Source of the DNA: a virus
Taxonomy: Duplodnaviria; Heunggongvirae; Uroviricota; Caudoviricetes
Strand: one strand, 5' to 3'
Virus record (IMG/VR): IMGVR_UViG_2778261165_000018
Coordinates: 1 to 11,868 of that record
DNA: 11,868 bases
Shown here one piece after another: positions 1-11,868 of the stretch (positions are counted from its first letter, which is position 1; each line of letters opens with the position of its first letter). The notes under the pieces are model-generated. The model had not been told where the DNA came from. It saw only the letters and a program-made list of their open reading frames with translations, and ran no database searches. The translations under genes were made by a program, and so were the position numbers.

Positions 1-342
1 ATGATGAAAAAAAGTATTCTGGCGTTTCTGTTACTCACCAGTTCTGCAGCGGCGCTGGCGGCACCGCAGGTGATTACCGTCAGCCGTTTTGAAGTGGGTA
101 AAGACAAATGGGCGTTTAATCGCGAAGAGGTGATGCTGACTTGCCGACCGGGTAATGCTTTGTATGTCATCAACCCAAGTACCCTCGTGCAGTATCCTTT
201 AAACGATATCGCACAAAAGGAAGTTGCCAGTGGGAAGACTAAAGCCCAGCCGATTTCGGTGATTCAGATTGATGATCCTAACAATCCCGGCGAAAAAATG
301 AGTCTGGCACCGTTTATAGAACGAGCTGAAAAACTCTGTTAA
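1..342 (+). CDS. yebY: Host DUF2511-family secreted protein (YebY-like), 113 aa with N-terminal signal peptide
   Basis: ATG at 1, TAA at 340-342. N-terminus [22 protein letters not shown] is a typical Sec signal peptide with an AXA cleavage motif. Sequence matches my recollection of E. coli YebY; not verified by search. Confidence 0.75.
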
Positions 343-370
343 TTACCTAAATAGCCTTTTGATTTCCAAT

Positions 371-412
371 AAAAAAACCGCCTCAGTTCTTTCACCAGAA
401 CGGGCGGTTTTT
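371..412. terminator. Intrinsic terminator downstream of yebY, bidirectional in form
   Basis: A7 run (371-377), GC-rich hairpin CCGCC...GGCGG (378-407) with inner stem GTTCT/AGAAC, then T5 (408-412). A-run before and T-run after allow termination in both directions. Confidence 0.7.
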
Positions 413-486
413 AACATTTAAGCTGATGACTACCGCGCTTTTTATTGACCATTTTGCACGCAAACTGGAAAACCTGGCGTCGTCAT

Positions 487-496
487 CTATTCTTAA
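487..496 (+). promoter_or_regulatory. Sigma-S type -10 element (CTATTCTTAA) for the downstream small RNA
   Basis: CTATTCTTAA is a 9/10 match to the RpoS-type extended -10 (CTATACTTAA) and includes the -13 C. Hexamer TATTCT at 488-493 puts the predicted start near 500. Confidence 0.45.
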
Positions 497-499
497 AGG

Positions 500-603
500 G
501 CAAGGCAACTAAGCCTGCATTAATGCCAACTTTTAGCGCACGGCTCTCTCCCAAGAGCCATTTCCCTGGACCGAATACAGGAATCGTATTCGGTCTTTTT
601 TTA
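500..603 (+). ncRNA. sdsR: Candidate SdsR (RyeB) RpoS-dependent small RNA, about 104 nt
   Basis: Predicted start about 500 (GCAAGGC...). Internal palindrome GCATTAATGC (about 518-527), hairpin GGCTCT/AGAGCC (542-559), and terminal hairpin GACCGAATAC/GTATTCGGTC (569-595) followed by T7 (596-602). No ORF with an RBS. I recall sdsR/ryeA lying next to yebY in E. coli and Salmonella. Confidence 0.55.
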
Positions 604-686
604 ATTGTATTTAAAATCAATCAGTTGCAAACGTCTTCCCGAAATTCCCCGAAATTTACTCGAATTTCTGTATTCCGGTCTTTTTT
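586..686. other. Candidate prophage attL region: two core-like 17-mers, IHF consensus site and tandem 10-bp repeats
   Basis: GTATTCGGTCTTTTTTT (586-602) recurs as GTATTCCGGTCTTTTTT (670-686). IHF consensus WATCAANNNNTTR matched at 615-627 (AATCAATCAGTTG). Three 10-bp-phased repeats CCCGAAATTC / CCCGAAATTT / ACTCGAATTT at 638-667. Integrase stop lies 47 bp further in, at 734. Confidence 0.4.
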
Positions 687-733
687 GGTTATATCACAAC
701 CAAAACACATTTAACAATCCATTTACGTTAAAA

Positions 734-1810
734 TCAGAGCAGTAAGTACGTTTTTTCTCGCTCATCAAGATACATTTTTGTTGTCTTCTCCGATGTGTGA
801 CCAAGTAGGCGCTGGGCAAATTCTTCTCCACATGTTTCTTTGTACAATCGTCCAGCCAGACTTCTGATCTCGTGAAAAGTTGGTGGGTTTTCACTGAACT
901 GGATACCTGTTAATTTTCTGGCTGCGACAAATTTTTTTGTCAGGCCATCCGGGTGAATGCTGCCGTCAGGGCTGTTTTTTCTAATCCCGGCACTGATTAG
1001 ATAATCTCCCCGGCTTACCAGGCGGCACCGTTCAACTACTGTACCAAGCCGTAGACCAGCGACAGGAAGGCTGAGTGACAGGGGGATAGCAATCATCATT
1101 CCTGTCTTAATTTGCCTGATGTGGAGACGATCATCATAAATATCACTGAACCGCATATTCGTTATGTCTTCGCGACGTTGTCCTGTTACAAGGGCTAAAT
1201 CCATAGCTAATGGGAACCATGCCGGCAGTTGATCTGCTGCCTCCCTGATGCAGTTGTATGTCTTTAGTTTCAGTCGTTCTCTTGTAACTACTATTTTCGG
1301 TGCTCTTGTTGGCGTTACTGGATTTTGAGATATACGTCCTTCAACAATGGCCTCGCGAAACATATCAGACAACACAGAACGCATTGATCCTGCCATTGTG
1401 TTTTTCCCTCCTTCAATCCACAAATCAAGAAACTCGGCAATATGGCGAGTTGTTATTTCTGTCAGTAAAATCCCTCCCAATTTTTCTTTTATTGTCTCCA
1501 GTTGATTTACCCGAATTTTATAAGTATTTCTGGACACTTTTCTCCTTATAAGAATCGTTTTGTAACGTTCAATCCAGTCTGCCATAGTAAATGAGTCGAA
1601 CCCTTTAAGCTTTTCAATTAAGGCAGCAGGAGAGTAGTTTTTGTATATATAATGATTTGCTTCAATTGCCTGCGCTACTGCATCTCTTCTTGAAATTTTA
1701 CCTAGTGTAAATTCTTCTTTCGTCAGAGGGTTGCGCCAGTAATATGCTTTGTCCCTCCTTCGATATGTTAAGTTTTTAGGCAAATTGGGATCGTATTTTT
1801 TCCGCTGCAT
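734..1810 (-). CDS. int: Lambda-family tyrosine integrase, 358 aa
   Basis: Collinear with lambda Int as recalled: N-terminal arm-binding region ([15 protein letters not shown]), catalytic-region motifs ([40 protein letters not shown]). RBS GGAGAAG 8 nt upstream of ATG at 1810. Confidence 0.9.
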
Positions 1811-2057
1811 GTTTTAACTTCTCCAGTAACGGACTGTCTCTCCCTTGTCGCCCATTAGGCTGATGGTGTGTTATATCGGTATCAACCTTATTTGGGTTGA
1901 TATAGAAAGCCTCCGGAACCACTCTGTAACTCCTCCCGTGTAGTTCAGGTGCAGGATAAATGTTTCCATTCCTTGCCCATCGTCTCAGCGTTGATATTGA
2001 TGGTGGGTTATCCGGATATCTGAGTTTTCCCCACGTTTTGAGTGTCACAAGATTCAT
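1776..2057 (-). CDS. xis: Excisionase (lambda Xis-like)
   Basis: Motif TLRRWARNGNIYPAPELHGRSYRV resembles lambda Xis (ETVRRWVRECRIFPPPVKDGREYLF). 3' end overlaps the int start by 35 nt as in lambda. Start chosen at the ATG at 2057 (RBS AAGAGG 7 nt upstream); the ATG at 2063 is too close to the RBS. Confidence 0.7.
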   Translation of the reverse strand: MNLVTLKTWGKLRYPDNPPSISTLRRWARNGNIYPAPELHGRSYRVVPEAFYINPNKVDTDITHHQPNGRQGRDSPLLEKLKHAAEKIRSQFA

Positions 2058-2163
2058 TGCCATACCTCTTACGATATGACCGCCAGTAAATATACAGAAT
2101 ACTGGCGGGTGTGGTTGATTTTTAATAATCAGCTATGAAGTTCTAATTTGTATATAATGCAAC

Positions 2164-2352
2164 TCACGAGGACAGAAGCTTCTCGCAATTAAAATTTATC
2201 AGCTTTACTTTCTGCTCTCTGGAAACGCCTGCTTCTTTTTTCCCTGAGAGCATTTTTTCGCATTCTGATTTCGTTAATTTAGATTTTGAATATCTTGTCC
2301 AGTTAGTAGGAGTGCCACCTTCTTTTTCAATAGTGGCAGTTATTTTATACAT
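2164..2352 (-). CDS. ydaC: Small prophage protein, YdaC-like, 62 aa
   Basis: ORF MYKITATIEKEGGTPTNWTRY... with RBS GGAGGTG directly upstream of the ATG at 2352. Overlaps the ralR stop by 8 nt. Position between xis and ralR matches Rac as I recall it. Confidence 0.6.
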   Translation of the reverse strand: MYKITATIEKEGGTPTNWTRYSKSKLTKSECEKMLSGKKEAGVSREQKVKLINFNCEKLLSS

Positions 2353-2539
2353 GAACACCTCCATTATTATTTCCAGTAGTTCGTTTATTCCATCTTTCGA
2401 GTGCTTCTTTTTCACTTCCACCATAGCCAGTTCGGGATTCGCATCCGTTGCATTTTGCCCGGTAATATCCTGAAATTGCTTTCACCGTAACAGATGGACA
2501 ACCACAAAACGGACATGGTTTAACATCGTCATATCTCAT
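2345..2539 (-). CDS. ralR: Restriction alleviation protein RalR/Lar (zinc-ribbon), 64 aa
   Basis: MRYDDVKPCPFCGCPSVTV...AKCNGCESRTGYG has a CxxC...CxxC zinc ribbon and matches my recollection of K-12 RalR. In-frame upstream ATGs at 2551 and 2578 would give 68 or 77 aa. Confidence 0.8.
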   Translation of the reverse strand: MRYDDVKPCPFCGCPSVTVKAISGYYRAKCNGCESRTGYGGSEKEALERWNKRTTGNNNGGVHV

Positions 2540-2595
2540 AATTTTTGTCATAAAAACTGTCTCACGTTGGCGGTGCATTACACCGCCAGGCTGAA

Positions 2596-3405
2596 TTATT
2601 CTTCTGAATTATCGATTACACTGTATTCCCCGGTTAATACAGAGGAGTCTGCCGGATCGATTGTCAGTGGTTCCTTTTCATCCATTGATACTGCACGCTG
2701 GATTTCAATTGAGACTGGCAGGTATTTAAACAGGCGACGAATAGCCGTTTTTTTTGCCATTTCTTCCCAGTGAGTTACCCATGGCCCGTTATTACCAGCC
2801 TTACTCTGGCTGCGCACCAGTTCAATCTGTTTGCGCGTCATAACTTCAAACTGAGTCCCTCCGTCTTTCAGTCTTGCGACAGCATAGACGTGGGTCACTG
2901 GTGCATCTTCGTTTTCTCCCGGGCGGTGTATTAACTTTTCATCAAGGCCAAATTCAAAACTAAACTCGTCACCTTCACGGACAACACGGGCTGACAGGCT
3001 GGCGATTTGACCAGAACGGCGAGCCAGATCAATCATGCCGCGATAACCAATGATTAGCTGAACGTTCTTTTTACCGCTCTTTTCGTTTTTATTACCAAAA
3101 GGCAGTAAATATGCGTGGCCGAGGGCGCTACCTGGCTCAAGGCCGAGCTGTGAACACTGAACGATCGCACTGACAAAACTCATGGTGTCACAGTTTCCTA
3201 GCGCCGGAACCTTACGAATTTCTGTGGTGGCGATACGTATCATTCGTTCAGCCGTCATATGGCGTGGGAGAGCTGCTGCCAGTTGCTCTTTCATTGATGG
3301 CTGATTAATAAAGCTGATCACGTCGTTATTTTTTACTGCTGCTGGTGCACGGTTTCCCTGGGTTTTTTGCAGATCGGCTTTTGCGATAGGTGGTTGCTTA
3401 GTCAT
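2596..3405 (-). CDS. recT: RecT single-strand annealing recombinase, 269 aa
   Basis: [27 protein letters not shown]... matches recalled Rac RecT over its whole length. RBS GGAG 7 nt upstream. Start overlaps the recE stop (3398-3405), indicating translational coupling. Confidence 0.9.
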
Positions 3406-6073
3406 TTGCATACTCCTTAGCCCAGCGGGGCAGTGATAACGTTTTAATAGCTGGCCATTCATCGGTATTCAGGCAGTCAGCCAGGGTCCTCAGATTGCGG
3501 TGATATTCCTGCTGGCCTGCCAGTTTTGCTTCTTCGCCCATCATGAAAATCTCAACCGGGTAACGTCCGCATTCAACAGTTGTGCTGGCAACCAGAAAAA
3601 CGAAAGTTGGCAGCACGCCAAACTGTGCTTCATAACCGTCACTGTAGAATGCATCCTGAACGTGATAGCGGTAGTCGTAATAAGCCGTTTTGAATCGTTG
3701 AATATCCGCTGTGGTTTTCACGTCCATGATCCAGTGAAATTCAGGAATAATTTTGTCCGGACGGCACCGACACAAAATTCCTGTTTCAGGATCTTCCCAG
3801 TAAATTGATGATTCAGCGTGTCCGGCGCTTTCAACAAGCCATTGACCCAGCGGCAAAGCCATAACGCTCTGATACATGAGTTCAATTTTCCGGCCTTCTT
3901 CGGCAGTGATAACCGTTTTTCCTGTGCTTGCGCATTCCATCAGAAACGCTTTCTCCTCTTCTTTTCCGGCGGTTGTACGGCGGTTAAATTCAGGTGCCAC
4001 GATAAAGCGGTTACTGAATTCTTCCGGTTCAAGTACACGGCAGTGGAAAGCGGTTCCTAAATCGAGCGTTTTTGTCTTTGTGGTGTCCACTGGGGCATTT
4101 TTACGCCACAAATACAGAGCCGGAGTATCAGCAATGTCGTCGAGCTGAGACTTACTGACACCGGGACCCGCGTGGTAATTCTCATTCGAAATTCCGTAAT
4201 AAATACCAGGCTCTATGTCTCCTGCGATTACGGGATCTGCGACTTCGCCAGTTTCATCACTGCAATCGCGATGCGGATCGCTGCCAGCATTCTCATTGTG
4301 CGGATGTTCAGGGCCTTCCATTTCCTCCGGATCTTTTTCCTGAGATTCATCCAGATTTTCTTCATTAAAGGTTTCCTGATACGTGGTGTCGCCCATCACC
4401 GCGCCACAATCAGGGCAGTTGCCGCCACCGCTCTGACCGCAGGCGGCACAGACTTTTTCCGGTTCCTGTTGCGCTACTGGTTCAGATTGTTTCGTTTCTG
4501 GCTCGTTTTTCTGTGCATTTGGGCTGTTTTGTTCCGCTTTCTGGTTGTTTTGTTCCGATTCGGGCTGGTTCTGGTTCACAGAATCTCGGGTTTCAATTCC
4601 CTTAACCCATTTCGGATCATTCGGGTCGCTAATCCCTTCAACAAATTCTCCGCGAGAGGCAGCCAGCAATTTGTCGGCATCGACAGGATTTTTGGGCGGA
4701 ATGGTTTTCCGGGCTTCATGGAGTTCTGCCCGCAGTTTCTGATATTTCGCATCAACAGAATTTACCTGTGACTGAGCATCCAGCGGCTGCGTGTCCTGAT
4801 GATGTTCAGTTGCATCCGGTTCCACTGTTTCAGCCGTTGCCTGTTTATCTGCCATTGCGCAAGATGGTTGCGGTTTTTCTTCACCATCGTGTTTTCCTTC
4901 TTCTGTTACACGCTGCGGCATCGGGGCAGAGGAACGACCGCAGGCAATATCCACGATTTCCGGATCAGGGTTGGCATGATCGGTTTCAATCAGCACCTTG
5001 TTCAGATATTCAGTGACATGCGCAGGGATAACCTCGATCCCAATTGGTGCTTCTTTTACGGACGCAACCACGATGGCGCGGGAATAATCCAGCCCGCCAG
5101 GCATGGTGATGAATTTGTCGCGGAAAACAGAAAAGGGCGGTTTATTTTCAGCGATAATTTCCTCGACACGTTTAGCGTGTGCCGGATGAAGGTTATAAAT
5201 GTCCACGTCCATTGAACGAGCCAGTACGCCAGTGGCTACGTCGCGCGCCAGTGACGTCAGATCGTGAACGAAACCTTCGCCGCGATCGGTGAGGTTCCCG
5301 CCGCCAGCATTAGCGCCGGAAGCCGTGCGCGTGATGCGTGAAACACGATTTCCTTTCATCCACTCTTTTGTCAGCAGACCGCGATCGGTGTAGTCTGCGT
5401 CCAGGTATGCTTCGAAAAAAGCAGTCATCAGCCCCAGGCTTGAATTGCCTGGATTAGGGAACACTCTGTCAGTATCACGCACCAGTTTGTGGAGATCGCG
5501 AATTTCCAGCGGGTCGAGCAGGCTGGTTTTGTGGGAAACAGCCAGGGCAGTAACAGCTGGTAGTTCTTCAGCCCGTGCAATGTGTAATGCCTGGAGTTCG
5601 TCGCGTGAAACGTGCGTTACCGGTTTTTCGCTGCCGTGTTGAGCAAGCCAGCGAATGGGCAGCTCCTGACCGGAAATCGGGAGTAGCATATTCTCCTCAA
5701 TCTCCGTCATGTCTTCGCCATTAACATTGGTATTGTCAGTGCTGGCTGGCTTGTCCTGCGCAGAGGATGAGGGCGCGATAAATACCATTGTGATGCCATC
5801 TTCCCCGCCTTTTTCGTAACGGTTGCAGAATTCCGTATCAAATACGCCTTCTGGTGGAAGGTCATCAACAACGGGCAAATTGACGCAAACAGGTTTTTTA
5901 AAGTCATCTTCATCGTAGCCAGCATCGTCAATCGCAACAGCACCACGGGAGATGGCAATGGATAATTTTTTCGCTTCAGCCCAGTAGAAACCGCCTTTAA
6001 TACCGAGACGTTTTCTTACTTTGTCATTTTTTGCTTCGTAATACAGTGGGTAAACTTGTTTATCGGTGCTCAT
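3398..6073 (-). CDS. recE: RecE exonuclease VIII, 891 aa
   Basis: C-terminal two-thirds (from [17 protein letters not shown] to the end ...[11 protein letters not shown]) matches recalled K-12 RecE, including the nuclease domain. The N-terminal roughly 110 residues differ from what I recall. ATG at 6073 with RBS GAGGT. Confidence 0.9.
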
Positions 6074-6143
6074 TGTTTTTTAACCTCAACTCAGATTAAA
6101 ATTAATGCGAGTGATGAATAAATGTCCCAGGTTCTTCACTCAG

Positions 6144-6173
6144 GCCTGCACAGTGTGCAGGCTTTCTTTTTTT
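6144..6173 (+). terminator. Plus-strand intrinsic terminator between racC stop and recE start
   Basis: Stem GCCTGCA (6144-6150), loop CAGTG, stem TGCAGGC (6156-6162), then TTTCTTTTTTT (6163-6173). It has terminator form only on the plus strand, opposite to the flanking genes. Confidence 0.5.
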
Positions 6174-6448
6174 CAGATTTCACCTTTTAATTTCATTGCA
6201 ATCAGAGTTGCCAGAAATTCGGCTTTTTTTTCTGCGGGCAGATTCTTTCCTATGTGCACCAGACACATTTTTTTAACACCATCGTTAAGTGTTTTAACGT
6301 TGCCTGATGGACCGTCGATATCAACCACAGTGAATGGGGTTTCTTTATTTTCTGTCTTAATCACGTAGCCAATACGCTTTCCTTCCAGGGTAACTTCGTG
6401 AACAATGTCATCAGTAGTAACAACAGTGGCTTCATAACTGGTAATCAT
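6173..6448 (-). CDS. racC: RacC, 91 aa prophage protein
   Basis: MITSYEATVVTTDDIVHEV... matches recalled K-12 RacC. RBS AAGGAGAAAAAC precedes the ATG at 6448. The longer track ORF starting at 6496 lacks an RBS. Confidence 0.8.
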   Translation of the reverse strand: MITSYEATVVTTDDIVHEVTLEGKRIGYVIKTENKETPFTVVDIDGPSGNVKTLNDGVKKMCLVHIGKNLPAEKKAEFLATLIAMKLKGEI

Positions 6449-6522
6449 GTTTTTCTCCTTAATTAAGGTTGAGCGAATCCCTGCCATTGCTGGCATAAAT
6501 TCAGTTTCGGATAGTCAGTTAA

Positions 6523-6693
6523 TTAAAGTTCGTGTGCCATCTGGTCTTTTTCGGCACAGATTTCACTACAATATTTTTTCATTTCCGTCGTTGGTATAAC
6601 TCCACGCATGAAATGAAGTGGTCTTGTAATGATTTTGCTTTCTTCAATTTCTTTATTGCAAAGGTGATAAGCACATTTTATTTTCTTAGTCAT
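6523..6693 (-). CDS. ydaE: YdaE-like small zinc-binding protein, 56 aa (absent from the ORF track)
   Basis: My translation of the minus strand: [56 protein letters not shown], with paired cysteines C-x4-C and C-x3-C. Its ATG overlaps the kilR stop (TAATG at 6691-6695). Confidence 0.7.
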   Translation of the reverse strand: MTKKIKCAYHLCNKEIEESKIITRPLHFMRGVIPTTEMKKYCSEICAEKDQMAHEL

Positions 6694-6914
6694 TACCATG
6701 ACTCCGCCTTTACAGGTAAACCATCACGACCGAGGAAGACTCTAATCATGCAGTCAGAAATGCATGTTTTTGTAGTCAGGCTACGAATATAAAGTTTTCG
6801 CTTTTTAATATTGTTTGCCGAGGCGATATATGTCCGACCTTCATGAAGAACATAATCGCCAGGGGTCACACACTGACGTGGTATTTCATCAGTTCCGAAG
6901 TGATGAGCAATCAT
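6693..6914 (-). CDS. kilR: KilR cell-division inhibitor, 73 aa
   Basis: [35 protein letters not shown]... matches recalled K-12 KilR. RBS GGAGAT 6 nt upstream of the ATG at 6914. Confidence 0.8.
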
Positions 6915-7419
6915 AATTATCTCCATTTTTACAAATGAATTTTGTCGATGCGGTGCCTGGTGCCTCCAGGTGACGTTAACCAGTTAACAATTAACGCCGG
7001 ATCGTGATATCACCTAAACAGATACGGGTTGTTTTTAACTGTTCCGCGTGCGCTGAGCCGCATTCACCGCATCACAAAATTCACTTTAAAAAGGACGGAC
7101 ATCAGCCAGCAATGAAACTGATGCCGCCAAAAGGTAATCAACATGGGTTGTTGCAGCGGGGTTGTCACTCAAGCGTATGGTCAACCTGACAACCCGGTGC
7201 TCCACAGGGGGAGGGAGAATAGCACCCCTGCCATACTTACCGCCGCGCCATTTCGCGGATTGCCACAACCGGAAGCGCACGGTCGAAGAAATTTAAAGAC
7301 AAGCCTTCTAAGGGAAAAACACCTCCTCCGTGCGCTTTCGTGTTGTGCGCCTGTCTTTTTACCACTTCAGGCTCGGTGGTATACTGGAGTTCTCACACAA
7401 CCAGTAATAAGGTATTCCG

Positions 7420-7614
7420 ATGGATAATAAAGACAAAGCCTGGCTACTTGCTTTAGCTTTCAGCATCAGATCGCAGCGAGAAACAACTCATCAAGAATTT
7501 TTCTCGGAAATCGAGAATGCTGAGAATGAGTTTTTGTCACTACTCAATGAACGTGATGCTAAAAAAAGCGCCGATTCACTTAAGGCTTGGGCGAAACTAG
7601 GCTCTTCAAAATAA
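7420..7614 (+). CDS. Hypothetical 64 aa protein in the position K-12 Rac gives to sieB
   Basis: ATG at 7420 with RBS AAGGT 6 nt upstream. Candidate promoter TTTTAC (7357-7362), 17 nt spacer, TATACT (7380-7385). No hydrophobic segment, so unlike a SieB membrane protein. Confidence 0.4.
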   Translation: MDNKDKAWLLALAFSIRSQRETTHQEFFSEIENAENEFLSLLNERDAKKSADSLKAWAKLGSSK

Positions 7615-7798
7615 TTGCTTCTGTAGCGGCATGAACAACTGTTTTTGCCGCCTCTTCAACTTCCTTGTCTGGACGACCAGCCTTTACTTTTTCTGCAATG
7701 ACCTCCAGCACAGTTGGAAGAACCTTGCTAATAAGCATGGCTGCCACATCTTTGCTGCACAATTGACCGTTAATAACAACCAGATCTTCACCAACCAT
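7580..7798 (-). CDS. Hypothetical 72 aa protein (possibly the intact form of the short ydaF/ydaG genes of K-12 Rac)
   Basis: ATG at 7798 with strong RBS AAGGGG 7 nt upstream. The track ORF extends to a TTG at 7855 without an RBS. Its 3' end overlaps the convergent 64 aa gene by 35 nt. Confidence 0.5.
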   Translation of the reverse strand: MVGEDLVVINGQLCSKDVAAMLISKVLPTVLEVIAEKVKAGRPDKEVEEAAKTVVHAATEAIILKSLVSPKP

Positions 7799-7977
7799 CT
7801 TTTTTCCCCTTAACGCCGGGTGGCGGAACGTTTTATCTACTGCGCTTTGTATCAATCAACAACTGCCGTCATGTTCGTATGCCTCAGGCTGGCTACTTAG
7901 CCCTGTTCAGTGGCTGGATAACTCGAGGTATTGTCCTGCCGTTCTCTGGTGGGGCGTTGTTTGGATATGACAAATGC

Positions 7978-7990
7978 TCACATATCGTGA
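7978..7990 (-). promoter_or_regulatory. Isolated operator-like site TCACGATATGTGA (read on the minus strand)
   Basis: Exact match to the TCACG-N3-TGTGA motif found three times in the racR/ydaS intergenic region. A perfect TTGACA lies on the minus strand at 8003-7998. Confidence 0.4.
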
Positions 7991-8043
7991 GTGATTTGTC
8001 AACTCAATATGTGAGCAATGTTGTTTTTGGATTTTTGATGGAC

Positions 8044-8076
8044 AAAAAAAGCCCTCGCTAATAGCGAGAGCTTTTT
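8044..8076. terminator. Bidirectional intrinsic terminator downstream of the repressor gene
   Basis: A7 (8044-8050), hairpin GCCCTCGCT/AGCGAGAGC (8051-8071), then TTTTT (8072-8076). Has terminator form in both orientations. Confidence 0.6.
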
Positions 8077-8102
8077 GATTGGAATCGAGGGAGATTAAAG
8101 GT

Positions 8103-8492
8103 TTAGGAGGATTTTTTCTGTTGCCTGCTTCTTAGATATTTTTCCACATACTCATCAAGCTCTTGAAGACGGATTTCGAACAGATCAATCATGCGTGCTT
8201 GTTCTGATCCCGGGAGCTGATTAAACAGCTCTAGCATTTTTTTCTGGTTATCATTTAACCATGAGTACGTGTTTTCCTGTTCACCGAACATTAATTCTGC
8301 GGGGGAAATGCCTAGTACTTGGCCGAGGATGATCGCATCCTCAGCCCCCACACTCCTGGTGCCAGCTTCGTAGTTAGCAATACGAGAAGAACCTGACCAA
8401 CCACATAGTTTTGCCAGGTTTCCCATACTTAATCCTCGATTTAGGCGAGTGGCTTTTAGGCGCTCGCCTATTTGTTCTGCAATCGTTTTCAT
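8103..8492 (-). CDS. racR: Prophage repressor, XRE/Cro-C1 family HTH (RacR-like), 129 aa from the ATG
   Basis: HTH signature LSMGNLAKLCGWSGSSRIANYEAG. Divergent from the cro-like ydaS across an operator-bearing intergenic region. Start taken at MKTIAEQ (8492); the track ORF extends upstream from a TTG. Confidence 0.75.
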   Translation of the reverse strand: MKTIAEQIGERLKATRLNRGLSMGNLAKLCGWSGSSRIANYEAGTRSVGAEDAIILGQVLGISPAELMFGEQENTYSWLNDNQKKMLELFNQLPGSEQARMIDLFEIRLQELDEYVEKYLRSRQQKKSS

Positions 8493-8505
8493 AGTTCCGA
8501 TTTTA

Positions 8506-8567
8506 TCACGATGTGTGAAATTGGCGGTACTCACGTATCTGTAGTTGATCTCACTCACGAAATGTGA
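8506..8567. promoter_or_regulatory. Three-site operator array (OR-like) between racR and ydaS
   Basis: TCACGATGTGTGA (8506-8518), TCACGTATCTGTA (8531-8543), TCACGAAATGTGA (8555-8567). Near-palindromic 13-mers spaced 25 and 24 bp centre to centre. Confidence 0.55.
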
Positions 8568-8572
8568 ATAAT
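8545..8572 (+). promoter_or_regulatory. Candidate rightward promoter for ydaS (pR-like)
   Basis: -35 TTGATC (8545-8550), 16 nt spacer, -10 AATAAT (8567-8572). Operator site 3 overlaps the spacer and -10. Confidence 0.35.
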
Positions 8573-8586
8573 AGAAACAGGAGGTA

Positions 8587-8832
8587 ATGATGAACAAAAT
8601 TTCAACATATCGAAAACAGCTTGGGCTGTCTCAAAGACAACTTGCTGTTCAGTTAGGGTGGATACAAAGCCGACTGGCAAATTACGAAGCAAATTTTCGT
8701 ACCCCTGGGCTAGAGGAGTGCAGAAAAATTGTTTCTACCCTTAATCGGCTTGGTGCTCATTGTGGACTTGACGATGTATTCCCCCCAGACGGTAAGCATA
8801 GCGAAAACAGCATAGGAGCGGTTGATTCATGA
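8587..8832 (+). CDS. ydaS: Cro-like HTH regulator YdaS
   Basis: HTH region LSQRQLAVQLGWIQSRLANYE. RBS GAGG fits the second ATG at 8590 better. Stop overlaps the ydaT start (ATGA at 8829-8832). Confidence 0.8.
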   Translation: MMNKISTYRKQLGLSQRQLAVQLGWIQSRLANYEANFRTPGLEECRKIVSTLNRLGAHCGLDDVFPPDGKHSENSIGAVDS

Positions 8833-9251
8833 AAATCAGGCATGAGCACATCGAATCAGTGTTGTTAGCCCTGGCAGCCGAAAAAGGGCAGGCGTGGGTC
8901 GCTAACGCAATTACTGAAGAATATCTGCGCCAGGGGGGCGGCGAATTGCCCCTTGTACCAGGCAAGGACTGGAACAATCAGCAGAATATCTATCACCGTT
9001 GGTTGAAAGGTGAAACGAAAGCGCAAAGGGAAAAAATTCAGAAACTCATCCCTGCGGTTCTGGCAATTCTTCCGCGCGAGCTGCGTCACCGACTCTGCAT
9101 CTTCGATACCCTGGAACGCCGTGCATTACTGGCGGCGCAGGAAGCGTTGAGTACGGCAATTGATGCGCATGATGATGCAGTACAGGCCGTTTACCGGAAA
9201 GCACATTTCAGCGGTGGTGGGTCGCCCGGCGATTCTGTCGTAGTGCATTGA
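8829..9251 (+). CDS. ydaT: YdaT-like protein (reported toxic partner of YdaS in Rac), 140 aa
   Basis: MKIRHEHIESVLLALAAEKGQAWVANAITEEY... matches recalled K-12 YdaT in length and sequence. Translationally coupled to ydaS. Confidence 0.8.
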   Translation: MKIRHEHIESVLLALAAEKGQAWVANAITEEYLRQGGGELPLVPGKDWNNQQNIYHRWLKGETKAQREKIQKLIPAVLAILPRELRHRLCIFDTLERRALLAAQEALSTAIDAHDDAVQAVYRKAHFSGGGSPGDSVVVH

Positions 9252-9296
9252 TTGAAATTAATCGTGCCGGATTGTTTTGTTCGGTATCAGTTAAAT

Positions 9297-9714
9297 GTAA
9301 CGCTGCGAGCGTTACAAGGTGAAAACAAATGGCTTCAAACTGGATAAAGCTCGAGGTTATTACGCCGGATAAGCCGGAAATATTCAGGCTTGCTGAGATT
9401 CTGAATATTGATCCAGATGCCGCATTAGGGAAGGTTATTCGCTTCTGGGCATGGGCGGATCAACAAATGATAGACGGTAATGCAGATTGTAACGCTCGCG
9501 GCGTTACAAAAAGTGCAATAGATCGCATCACTTTTATGGCTGGTTTTGCTGATGCGTTAATTCAGGTTGGATGGCTGGTCGAAAATGACGTTGGGCTTTC
9601 TCTACCTAACTTTGAACGTCATAACGGAAAAAGCTCTAAAAAACGGGCGGTTACAAACGAGCGAGTTACAAAAATACGCGAACTGAAACGAAAAGGTAAC
9701 GCTGCCAGCGTTAC
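9297..9714. repeat. Iteron-like 19-bp palindromes GTAACGCT-N3-AGCGTTAC (three good copies and one degenerate)
   Basis: GTAACGCTGCGAGCGTTAC (9297-9315, just upstream of the ydaU-like start), GTAACGCTCGCGGCGTTAC (9489-9507), degenerate GTTACAAACGAGCGAGTTACA (9650-9670), GTAACGCTGCCAGCGTTAC (9696-9714). An acidic linker with (GAGGAA)3 and an AT-rich patch follow at 9736-9775. Confidence 0.5.
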
Positions 9715-10117
9715 ACAAACGGATCAAAAAGCGTTACCAGAGGAAGAGGAAGAGGAAGATATAAATACTGATCTCCCCCTAAATCCCCCTCGTCAAAAAC
9801 GAGCGTCTAAAAAATTCGAGCCGGAGGCTATTGAGCTGCCCGATTGGTTGCCGGAAACACTCTGGCATGAGTGGGTCCGGTTCAGACAGGCATTGCGAAA
9901 ACCGATTCGAACGGAGCAGGGCGCTAACGGGGCGATACGGGAACTGGAAAAATTCCGTCAGCAGGGTTTTACACCTGAGCAGGTGATTCGACACAGCATC
10001 GCCAATGAATACCAGGGCCTGTTCGCGCCGAAAGGTGTTCGGCCTGAGACGTTGCTCCGACAGGTTAACACCGTCTCGTTGCCGGACAGTGCGATCCCGC
10101 CAGGCTTCAGGGGGTAA
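9329..10117 (+). CDS. ydaU: Phage replication initiation protein (YdaU-like, lambda O analogue), 262 aa
   Basis: RBS AGGTGA 6 nt upstream of the ATG. Lies immediately upstream of the DnaC-like loader, contains the palindromic repeats and a central acidic linker (EEEEEED). Family assignment is from memory. Confidence 0.7.
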   Translation: MASNWIKLEVITPDKPEIFRLAEILNIDPDAALGKVIRFWAWADQQMIDGNADCNARGVTKSAIDRITFMAGFADALIQVGWLVENDVGLSLPNFERHNGKSSKKRAVTNERVTKIRELKRKGNAASVTQTDQKALPEEEEEEDINTDLPLNPPRQKRASKKFEPEAIELPDWLPETLWHEWVRFRQALRKPIRTEQGANGAIRELEKFRQQGFTPEQVIRHSIANEYQGLFAPKGVRPETLLRQVNTVSLPDSAIPPGFRG

Positions 10118-10123
10118 CGGACC

Positions 10124-10870
10124 ATGAAAAATATTGCGACAGGCGGCGTTCTGGAACGCATCCGCCGACTGACCCCGCCACATGTAACCGCCCCATTCAG
10201 AACGGTAGCGGAGTGGCGCGAGTGGCAACTTGCTGAAGGCCAGAAACGTAGCGAGGAGATCAACCGCCTGAATCGCCAGTTGCGGGTGGAAAAAATTCTG
10301 AATCGCTCAGGCATCCAGCCGTTGCACCGTAAATGCTCGTTTGCGAATTACCAGGTGCAGAACGACGGCCAGCGATACGCGTTAAGCCAGGCGAAATCCA
10401 TCACCGATGAACTGATGACCGGGTGTACAAATTTTGCGTTCAGCGGAAAACCTGGTACCGGGAAGAATCACTTAGCGGCAGCTATCGGGAATCGCCTGCT
10501 GAAAGACGGTCAGACAGTGATTGTGGTTACCGTGGCTGATGTTATGAGCGCCCTGCACGCCAGCTATGACGACGGGCAGTCAGGCGAAAAATTTTTGCGG
10601 GAGCTGTGCGAAGTGGATCTGCTGGTTCTTGATGAAATTGGCATTCAGCGCGAGACAAAAAACGAGCAGGTGGTGCTGCACCAGATTGTTGATCGCCGGA
10701 CAGCGTCGATGCGCAGCGTGGGGATGCTGACAAACCTGAACTATGAGGCCATGAAAACATTGCTCGGCGAGCGGATTATGGATCGCATGACCATGAACGG
10801 CGGGCGATGGGTGAATTTTAACTGGGAGAGCTGGCGTCCGAATGTCGTCCAGCCAGGAATTGCGAAGTGA
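10124..10870 (+). CDS. ydaV: DnaC-like replicative helicase loader (AAA+ ATPase, IstB-like), 248 aa
   Basis: Walker [14 protein letters not shown] and Walker [10 protein letters not shown]. Length and sequence match recalled K-12 YdaV. Confidence 0.9.
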
Positions 10871-10892
10871 TTTTTACCGGGAGGAAATTTTA

Positions 10893-11645
10893 ATGGAAAC
10901 TGTATTTGACGCACTGAAAGCAATGGGAAAAGCCACGTCGGTAGAACTGGCTGCGCGACTTGATATCAGTCGTGAAGAGGCTGTCAACGAGCTGTGGGAA
11001 CTCAAAAGAAATGGCGTTGTTGATAAAACTGGTCACACCTGGTCTCTGGCTGGCGAAGGTGAATCCCGGGTAACCGAAGAGCGGCCAGTAAAATCTGAAG
11101 CACAGGATATGCTGACCGGGGAGGTCGAACAAAAAGTTACCGCAGACATGATGATTGAGTTTATCGGTCAGGATGGGGCTAAAACGTGTGAGGAACTGGC
11201 GGGTAAGTTCGGTGTCAGTACTCGCAAGGTTGCTTCCACGCTGGCGGTGGTAACCGCAACGGGGCGGCTGGCACGCGTTAATCAGAACGGTAAATTTCGT
11301 TACTGCATGCCGGGCGATAATTTACCAGCAGAGCCGAAAGCCGCGCTGGTAACGGAAAGTGATGGTAAGGCCTTTCCTCAACCAGCAGGTGTTGCGTTAC
11401 CGGGACAGGAAGCTGCAACACAGGAAGATATTAAAACAGAAACTGTGGCAGACATTGTGCAGCCGCTTGAGAAGCGAGTGGATAATCTGGTTCTGCCATC
11501 GCTGCGACAGGCAAACCGCGAACTGCGTCGGGCGAAAAGTGATATCCGGAAATGGGAGCGAGTCTGTGTCGCGCTGCGGGAGCTGAATAAATATCGCGAT
11601 ATTGTCGCCCAGCTTTGCCAGGAGGCAACCAGTGAGCAAAATTAA
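10893..11645 (+). CDS. Hypothetical prophage protein with two winged-helix-like segments and a C-terminal helical region (YdaW-like), 250 aa
   Basis: Start chosen at the ATG at 10893 (RBS GGGAGG about 9 nt upstream) rather than the track start at 10842, which overlaps ydaV. Two helix-turn-helix-like stretches (around [26 protein letters not shown] and [21 protein letters not shown]). Confidence 0.6.
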
Positions 11646-11868
11646 CTATCAGGCACTACGTGAGATAGCAAAACAGGCAACACAGGGCGAATGGGTCGCG
11701 TTTATTTCGACGGGTACAGGTACGTATGCTGTGCATACGCCCGGTGATAAACGATGTGAAGATGTTATCAAATGGACCGGCTTTGATGGACTGAAAAACG
11801 CAGAGAACAACGCTCGTTATATTGCCGCATTCAACCCAAAGGTTGCACTGGAGCTACTTGGTGAAATT
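11632..11868 (+). CDS. Hypothetical prophage protein, 5' partial (runs off the window end)
   Basis: GTG at 11632 preceded by GGAGG (11621-11625) at 6 nt. Open frame to the window end ([28 protein letters not shown]...). Overlaps the upstream gene's stop by 14 nt. Confidence 0.5.

Follow-up and report, generated by a model that had tools for sequence, protein, structure and literature searches.

A probable ralA antitoxin RNA gene antisense to ydaC in a Rac-like prophage

Does the strand opposite ydaC encode a small RNA that restrains the neighboring toxin gene ralR, and if so, through which contacts would it act? The question was raised by an 11,868-nt stretch of Caudoviricetes DNA (IMG/VR record IMGVR_UViG_2778261165_000018, positions 1 to 11,868; analyzed whole and called here the window), in which two minus-strand genes, ralR (2345-2539) and a homolog of ydaC (2164-2352), share an 8-nt overlap, ATGTATAA (2345-2352), exactly as a first-pass annotation of the sequence had reported. 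That annotation had also proposed, tentatively, a RalA-like plus-strand RNA of 150 to 200 nt that would start at about 2165 and run antisense to ydaC.

Identity of the RNA and of its toxin gene

A whole-window Rfam scan returned RF02694 (RalA, “RalR antitoxin”) at 2168-2346 on the plus strand, with a score of 215.8 bits (E 5.6e-52; gathering score, 170 bits) and a complete match that covered all model positions from 1 to 179. The RNA envisaged by the first-pass annotation was thus recovered in length, strand, and position, although its end at 2346 falls short of position 2365, to which the annotation had extended it. In the K-12 genome (NC_000913.3), the noncoding RNA gene ralA (b4714) is annotated at 1413556-1413734 (+), inside rcbA/ydaC (1413531-1413740, -) and abutting ralR (1413733-1413927, -). 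The window aligned with this gene free of gaps and with 171 of 179 positions identical (95.5%), the 8 differences falling at 2174, 2179, 2203, 2242, 2277, 2323, 2338, and 2341, and the ends coincided: 2168 corresponds to the first K-12 ralA base and 2346 to the last. Location and orientation are also those of K-12, with ralA lying antisense within ydaC and convergent with ralR, its 3' end abutting the ralR stop codon in a 2-nt overlap (2345-2346), so that comparison with the published ralA coordinates bore out the proposed homology. Judged by sequence and position, the feature is the ortholog of the experimentally characterized K-12 ralA. The likeness to the RalR/RalA system of K-12 Rac (Guo et al. 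2014, PMC4041452) extends to the gene order (recT, ralR, and ydaC, with ralA on the strand opposite ydaC), as well as the length and ends of the RNA, the position of its -10 box, and its terminator hairpin.

The feature itself is already known: RalA has been in the literature since 2014, is curated in Rfam, and is annotated in the K-12 reference. Any ydaC gene more than 90% identical would yield a match to RF02694, regardless of whether its antisense RNA is produced, and because the sequence by itself lends little support, the identification draws on homology to the K-12 experiments. In K-12, RalA was seen by RNA-seq in all eight conditions (PMC12266141); the literature collection that we searched yielded no usable RIL-seq data on RalA and no usable E. 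coli dRNA-seq map of transcription start sites. Taken together, it is very probable that 2168-2346 (+) is ralA in a Rac-like lambdoid prophage, with a role in neutralizing RalR that is carried over from the K-12 work.

The toxin/restriction-alleviation protein encoded by ralR (also lar; 2345-2539, -) has 64 aa, of which 63 are identical to those of K-12 RalR (N5D), and it matches Pfam PF14354 (Lar_restr_allev; E 2.3e-14), in agreement with the PGAP annotation; RalR is thereby a member of the Lar proteins of lambdoid phages. King and Murray (1995; as cited in PMC4041452) first described the protein as Lar, in connection with restriction alleviation, and it was subsequently reported to be a non-specific DNase toxin with no restriction alleviation (Guo et al., PMC4041452). 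Some natural ralR alleles (L011-L110) carry premature stops (W50 or G24 to stop) or non-ATG first codons, and these broken forms, together with mismatches in the RalA terminator of 6 of 27 alleles, suggest decay of the module in some prophages. Separately, the spacer between recT and ralR holds a GC-rich hairpin, GGCGGTG-cauua-CACCGCC (2569-2575/2581-2587), some 40 nt before the start codon of ralR, which could influence the expression of ralR or be the end of a transcript.

Promoter, terminator, and fold

The candidate -10 box of the ralA promoter, TATAAT (2153-2158, +), lies 5 nt beyond the ydaC stop codon (2164-2166), where the first-pass annotation had seen it just outside the gene, and ends 9 nt before the published and Rfam 5' end at 2168. 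Alone, the hexamer is unremarkable, showing no enrichment in the window (2 copies, versus 4.2 expected from shuffles), and it takes its meaning from its position relative to the known RNA. The lack of a clear -35 element, also remarked upon in the earlier annotation, was reproduced by a promoter consensus scan of 1900-2700, which found no -35 partner. Unlike this allele with its consensus TATAAT, K-12 has TACAAT (L003, 542-547), which falls within the longer K-12 ydaC ORF. Of 47 Rac-type loci, 29 have TATAAT at this place, 17 have TACAAT, and 1 has TATGAT, such that one of the first two forms is kept in 46 of 47, in a non-coding stretch. YdaC itself ends after 62 aa here (…EKLLSS; stop, 2164-2166) and after 69 aa in K-12 (…EKLQSSRIALYSN; stop, L003 532-534), which leaves the -10 box of ralA intergenic here and inside the ORF in K-12.

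The 5' end of K-12 RalA was placed by primer extension 62 nt upstream of a “16-nt repeat” (Guo et al. 2014, PMC4041452). This published end maps onto position 2168 of the window (RalA nt 1). A spacing of 9 nt from -10 box to start is at the long end of normal, and we infer that a start at A2166 would fit better; capillary primer extension carries an error of 1 to 2 nt. Native expression of RalA is low, and its 5' end was mapped from a plasmid (PMC4041452) that stopped at the ydaC stop and so held just 25 nt of native upstream sequence, which would fit a promoter that has no need of a native -35 element.

Where the first-pass annotation had seen no terminator, one of the Rho-independent type can be drawn at 2313-2346 (+) from the Rfam structure, the minimum-free-energy fold, and the published account (PMC4041452), and we grade it as weak. 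Its stem, UGCCAC/GUGGCA, is made of a 5' arm at 2313-2318 (RalA nt 146-151) and a 3' arm at 2333-2338 (nt 166-171) that enclose a 14-nt loop at 2319-2332 (nt 152-165), followed by the tail GUUAUUUU at 2339-2346 (nt 172-179). For K-12, the published prediction was of a GC-rich stem of 5 bp with a loop of 14 nt, followed by four U residues at the end of an RNA of 179 nt (PMC4041452). A generic promoter and terminator scan of 1900-2700 returned neither the ralA promoter nor its terminator; the latter was missed because the loop limit of the scan was 8 nt and the loop here has 14, and with that loop and no -35 element, the scan is uninformative either way. At the sequence level, a promoter and a terminator of its own are thus present for the 179-nt RNA in the form of TATAAT, the hairpin at 2313-2338, and the U-rich tail.

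Relative to K-12 ralA, the 5' stem-loop of the Rfam/K-12 model (2169-2206, +, from the Rfam alignment) is weakened in this allele by the loss of three pairs: 3 of the 13 pairs of helix 1 are mismatched (5-36, 7-34, and 12-27), helices 2 to 6 are intact, and the ViennaRNA folds of the two alleles differ. The predicted fold, at -37.2 kcal/mol, is close to that of shuffles (-33.9 ± 3.9; z-score, -0.86). Among 27 distinct Rac-type alleles, compensatory changes were found at 0 of the 48 pairs of the Rfam structure, a test that is uninformative because these alleles are at least 92% identical and contain no double changes. Pair 7-34 is broken in 21 of the 27, this allele included, pair 5-36 in 11, and the terminator pair 149-168 in 6 (GTAGC for GTGGC).

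Such results would suit a reading in which no RNA function is under selection at all, the transcript being weak pervasive antisense output from a chance -10 box and the similarity to RalA being a consequence of coding conservation in ydaC. The lack of covariation, the natural alleles with broken pairs (the terminator's among them), and a fold that is not unusually stable all favor it, as do a -10-only promoter in AT-rich prophage DNA, low native expression with a plasmid-mapped 5' end (PMC4041452), variation in the RalA region that is nearly all synonymous in the ydaC frame, and distant DUF1187 loci that have neither the promoter nor the structure. We nevertheless regard this reading as highly improbable, given that 46 of 47 loci keep the -10 box within non-coding DNA and that K-12 point mutants, matched double mutants, and Hfq binding (PMC4041452) all speak against it. 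With chance-level pairing (see below), an unexceptional fold, and no covariation, the case for a function of RalA is carried by the K-12 genetics.

Pairing with ralR mRNA and antisense action in cis

In K-12, RalA supplied in trans neutralizes RalR, and it did so when provided from pBAD to cells expressing ralR alone, without ydaC sequence (PMC4041452). The antitoxin loses some of its effect when nt 63 or nt 64 alone is changed and all of it when the repeat carries four changes, and the matched M1/M1 double mutant, with both the ralR and the RalA repeats altered, restores it; Hfq binds RalA and is needed for the effect (PMC4041452), and what RalA lowers is the RalR protein, not the ralR mRNA. 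If the same holds here, RalA would be transcribed from its -10-only promoter, bind Hfq, and pair through nt 63-78 with codons 41-46 of ralR mRNA, upon which RalR protein would fall and the reported non-specific DNase toxin would be neutralized (all by analogy with K-12, PMC4041452). As for the partnership with ralR that the first-pass annotation had suggested for an RNA reaching the ralR 3' end, the identification of the RNA as RalA sustains the partnership itself, but the published pairing is with the ralR coding region and does not run via the 3' overlap.

As in the SymR/symE, Sib/ibs, and Sok/hok systems, a small RNA from the opposite strand, beside or over a small toxin gene, represses synthesis of the toxin, and RalR and SymE are alike in being soluble toxins of the nuclease type and not membrane peptides (PMC4147584). 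Unlike the cis-encoded SymR, Sib, and Sok, however, RalA overlaps the neighboring gene ydaC and not the translation start of the toxin gene, and it pairs inside the toxin coding region over about 12 to 16 nt. RalA is also reported to be Hfq-dependent, which makes it unique among the type I systems of E. coli.

The “16-nt repeat” of this allele is RalA nt 63-78 (2230-2245, +; PMC4041452 and K-12 alignment), with C for A at nt 75 (2242), and its target in the ralR coding region is the mRNA sequence AAGUGAAAAAGAAGCA (2402-2417, -; CDS nt 123-138, codons S-E-K-E-A; PMC4041452). Of 87 Rac-type loci, 72 have an identical target (in 9, it reads …GCG), and RalA nt 63-74 are invariant in 27 distinct natural alleles, forming 11 Watson-Crick pairs and 1 G-U pair here. 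Relative to K-12, A75C is a second mismatch that shortens the duplex, with 12 contiguous pairs here versus 14 in K-12 (13 Watson-Crick and 1 G-U) and 14 of 16 positions paired versus 15 of 16. The duplex is thereby also weaker, at -13.3 kcal/mol versus -17.5 kcal/mol in K-12 or, once opening costs are included, at a predicted net energy of -4.0 to -6.5 kcal/mol versus -8.1 kcal/mol. Pairing was judged by counts of runs relative to shuffles and by site-wise energies with opening costs; these took the place of a whole-molecule RNAduplex calculation, in which RalA and ralR mRNA paired unrealistically from end to end. Of 300 RalA shuffles, 11 (3.7%) contained a Watson-Crick run of 11 nt with ralR mRNA, and when G-U pairs were allowed, runs of at least 12 pairs appeared in 41% of shuffles and runs of at least 14 in 8.7%. 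Runs of this kind are common in shuffles, RalA being U-rich and its target A-rich.

A further feature that sets this allele apart from K-12 ralA is a second complement to ralR. The terminator-loop sequence CUUCUUUUUCA (2319-2329, +; RalA nt 152-162) is predicted to complement the same ralR site perfectly over 11 nt (CDS nt 126-136), a match that is created by C156U at 2323 and missing from K-12, and its net predicted energy is -8.1 kcal/mol here versus -4.0 kcal/mol in K-12. The RalA of this allele might accordingly be thought to contact ralR mRNA mainly through the open terminator loop and not through nt 63-78: the loop is unpaired in the prediction (p 0.48), its net energy is better than that of the nt 63-78 site in the same allele, and the motif occurs three times on the plus strand. 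We consider this very unlikely. C156U is a synonymous change (AAG to AAA) in ydaC that is found in just 26 of 88 loci, about 4% of shuffles contain 11-nt matches, and the proposal is purely computational. Nor do the alleles show any pattern of compensation between the two sites; many carry C75 together with C156, neither of them the pairing-favorable base, and the idea that C156U compensates for A75C was rejected on that ground. As a separate observation, a 14-mer containing CTTCTTTTT is present in three direct plus-strand copies (2227-2240, 2314-2327, and 2399-2412, spaced by 87 and 85 nt) that coincide with the pairing site and the terminator loop of RalA and with its target in ralR and are antisense to Glu and Lys codons.

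The preferred reading, in which RalA would act in trans through nt 63-78, has also to be set against an action in cis. Given their 8-nt overlap, ralR and ydaC probably share a transcript, and RalA would at the same time be perfectly complementary in cis, over its 179 nt, to the distal portion of this operon mRNA; its main natural role might be to control ydaC and the ralR-ydaC transcript, with trans pairing being secondary or specific to K-12. Several lines of evidence lend this weight: ydaC is under purifying selection at the protein level (25 synonymous versus 8 non-synonymous variants), DUF1187 is conserved across genera, also where no Lar/RalR gene adjoins it, and yields a confident AlphaFold model (pLDDT 80.6), the ATGTATAA overlap suggests translational coupling of ydaC with ralR, and the 16-nt duplex is weakened in this and many other alleles and is statistically not above chance; moreover, a review from 2014 states that an interaction at the 3' ends had not been excluded (PMC4147584). 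In K-12, on the other hand, RalA supplied in trans neutralized ralR alone and matched repeat mutations restored the effect (PMC4041452), and ralR/ralA showed no RNase III cleavage site (PMC6212723), although the operon is poorly expressed there. On this evidence, a predominantly cis role seems doubtful. A stronger form, in which the trans pairing is an incidental by-product of the three CTTCTTTTT motifs and RalA chiefly regulates ydaC or ralR-ydaC in cis, we hold to be unlikely. Were it true, the conserved biology of the locus would be an antisense RNA over a genuine and widely conserved phage protein gene, the incidental trans duplex would be strong only in K-12-type alleles, and the “chromosome-break reduction” phenotype of rcbA could belong to the YdaC protein.

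ydaC as a protein gene and the prophage that carries it

The 2014 paper declared ydaC non-coding (PMC4041452), and here the comparative evidence points the other way. The ydaC/rcbA homolog (2164-2352, -), to which ralA is fully antisense, encodes 62 aa from MYKITA, matches PF06688 (DUF1187; E 5.8e-38), and is annotated as a DUF1187 family protein in a genome that is identical over this region (NZ_CP148507). Across 88 Rac-type loci, 25 of its 33 variant types are synonymous and 8 non-synonymous (21% synonymous would be expected at random), and of the 29 sites that vary in the ORF, 20 are third codon positions. All 8 differences between this ralA and that of K-12 fall at ydaC sites that vary among Rac-type loci; 7 of them are synonymous in ydaC, and the eighth is a Leu/Gln polymorphism at codon 60. 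DUF1187 homologs of 46 to 66% identity are found in prophages of Klebsiella, Citrobacter, Izhakiella, Symbiopectobacterium, and Buttiauxella, with M1, Y2, K3, I4, A6, K10, G12, W18, R20, and S22 invariant; several have no Lar/RalR neighbor, one of them (L008) having a D12 methyltransferase upstream instead. The AlphaFold model of YdaC (mean pLDDT 80.6) has a strand-strand-helix-strand fold for which a Foldseek search of the PDB gave no match at an E value below 0.4, the top, non-significant hits being phage p56 uracil-DNA glycosylase inhibitors. On these patterns, and contrary to the 2014 paper, ydaC evolves as a real protein gene. Diversity at third codon positions is lower in ydaC (0.057) than in recT (0.084) or ralR (0.094), which could be held against the absence of any selected RNA function, but the loci were chosen by YdaC similarity; because of this bias, the comparison was set aside and was not used as a sign of constraint at the RNA level.

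Outside the Rac-type elements, RalA fades while the protein gene persists. At the DUF1187 loci of Klebsiella, Citrobacter, Izhakiella, Symbiopectobacterium, and Buttiauxella, the search for RalA found only residual homology of 24 to 36 bits, with many RalA pairs broken and no homologous promoter. Citrobacter-type Lar genes differ from the RalR locus in that they adjoin a DUF1187 gene without a recognizable RalA or complementarity, the complements in these Lar/DUF1187 pairs being just 7 to 8 nt and at chance level. Going by these low scores and chance-level complements, RalA in its described form belongs solely to the Rac-type elements found in Escherichia and Shigella, where it would overlie an older protein gene, ydaC.

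Within E. coli, the ralR-ydaC region was found in 1,922 of 5,426 complete genomes (about a third), with an identity to this allele of at least 99% in 156 genomes and of 90 to 95%, the band of the K-12 strains, in 1,674; the locus is also carried by sequenced inducible phages, e.g., Rac-SA53. The PGAP annotations of NZ_CP148507 and of a K-12 assembly list ralR and DUF1187/rcbA and omit ralA. The value of the present identification is accordingly one of annotation, as PGAP leaves out ralA from a locus present in about one complete E. coli genome in three. The comparative results also qualify the published model, with a protein-like ydaC, no covariation in RalA, and a weaker 16-nt duplex in a common allele; of these, the weakened duplex and the behavior of ydaC as a genuine protein gene are mildly new.

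A 621-nt region of the window is 100% identical to E. coli Z1323CEC0001 (NZ_CP148507), in which the order of the lambdoid prophage is yebY, integrase, excisionase, DUF1187, ralR, recT, recE … kilR. The window is a Rac-like prophage with an attachment site other than that of K-12 Rac, as follows from the onset of K-12 homology only at 2114, 54 nt upstream of ralA, and from the presence of sdsR/ryeA next to the integrase gene. Unlike K-12 Rac, which is inserted at ttcA, it is inserted at yebY-sdsR/ryeA, and it has another integrase/excisionase module, in which the excisionase gene (PF07825; 1776-2063, -) overlaps the tyrosine integrase gene (734-1810, -) by 35 nt (1776-1810). At the prophage edge, the Rfam scan found the pair SraC/RyeA (462-606, -) and SdsR/RyeB (503-602, +). 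An exact second copy of the SdsR terminator end, CGGTCTTTTTT (591-601), closely precedes the integrase gene at 676-686, and this repeat probably marks the core of the attachment site, the prophage being inserted at the sdsR 3' end. Between the excisionase start and ydaC lies a perfect 9-bp inverted repeat, CCGCCAGTA/TACTGGCGG (2080-2088/2100-2108, with an 11-nt spacer), immediately before position 2114, where homology to K-12 Rac sets in.
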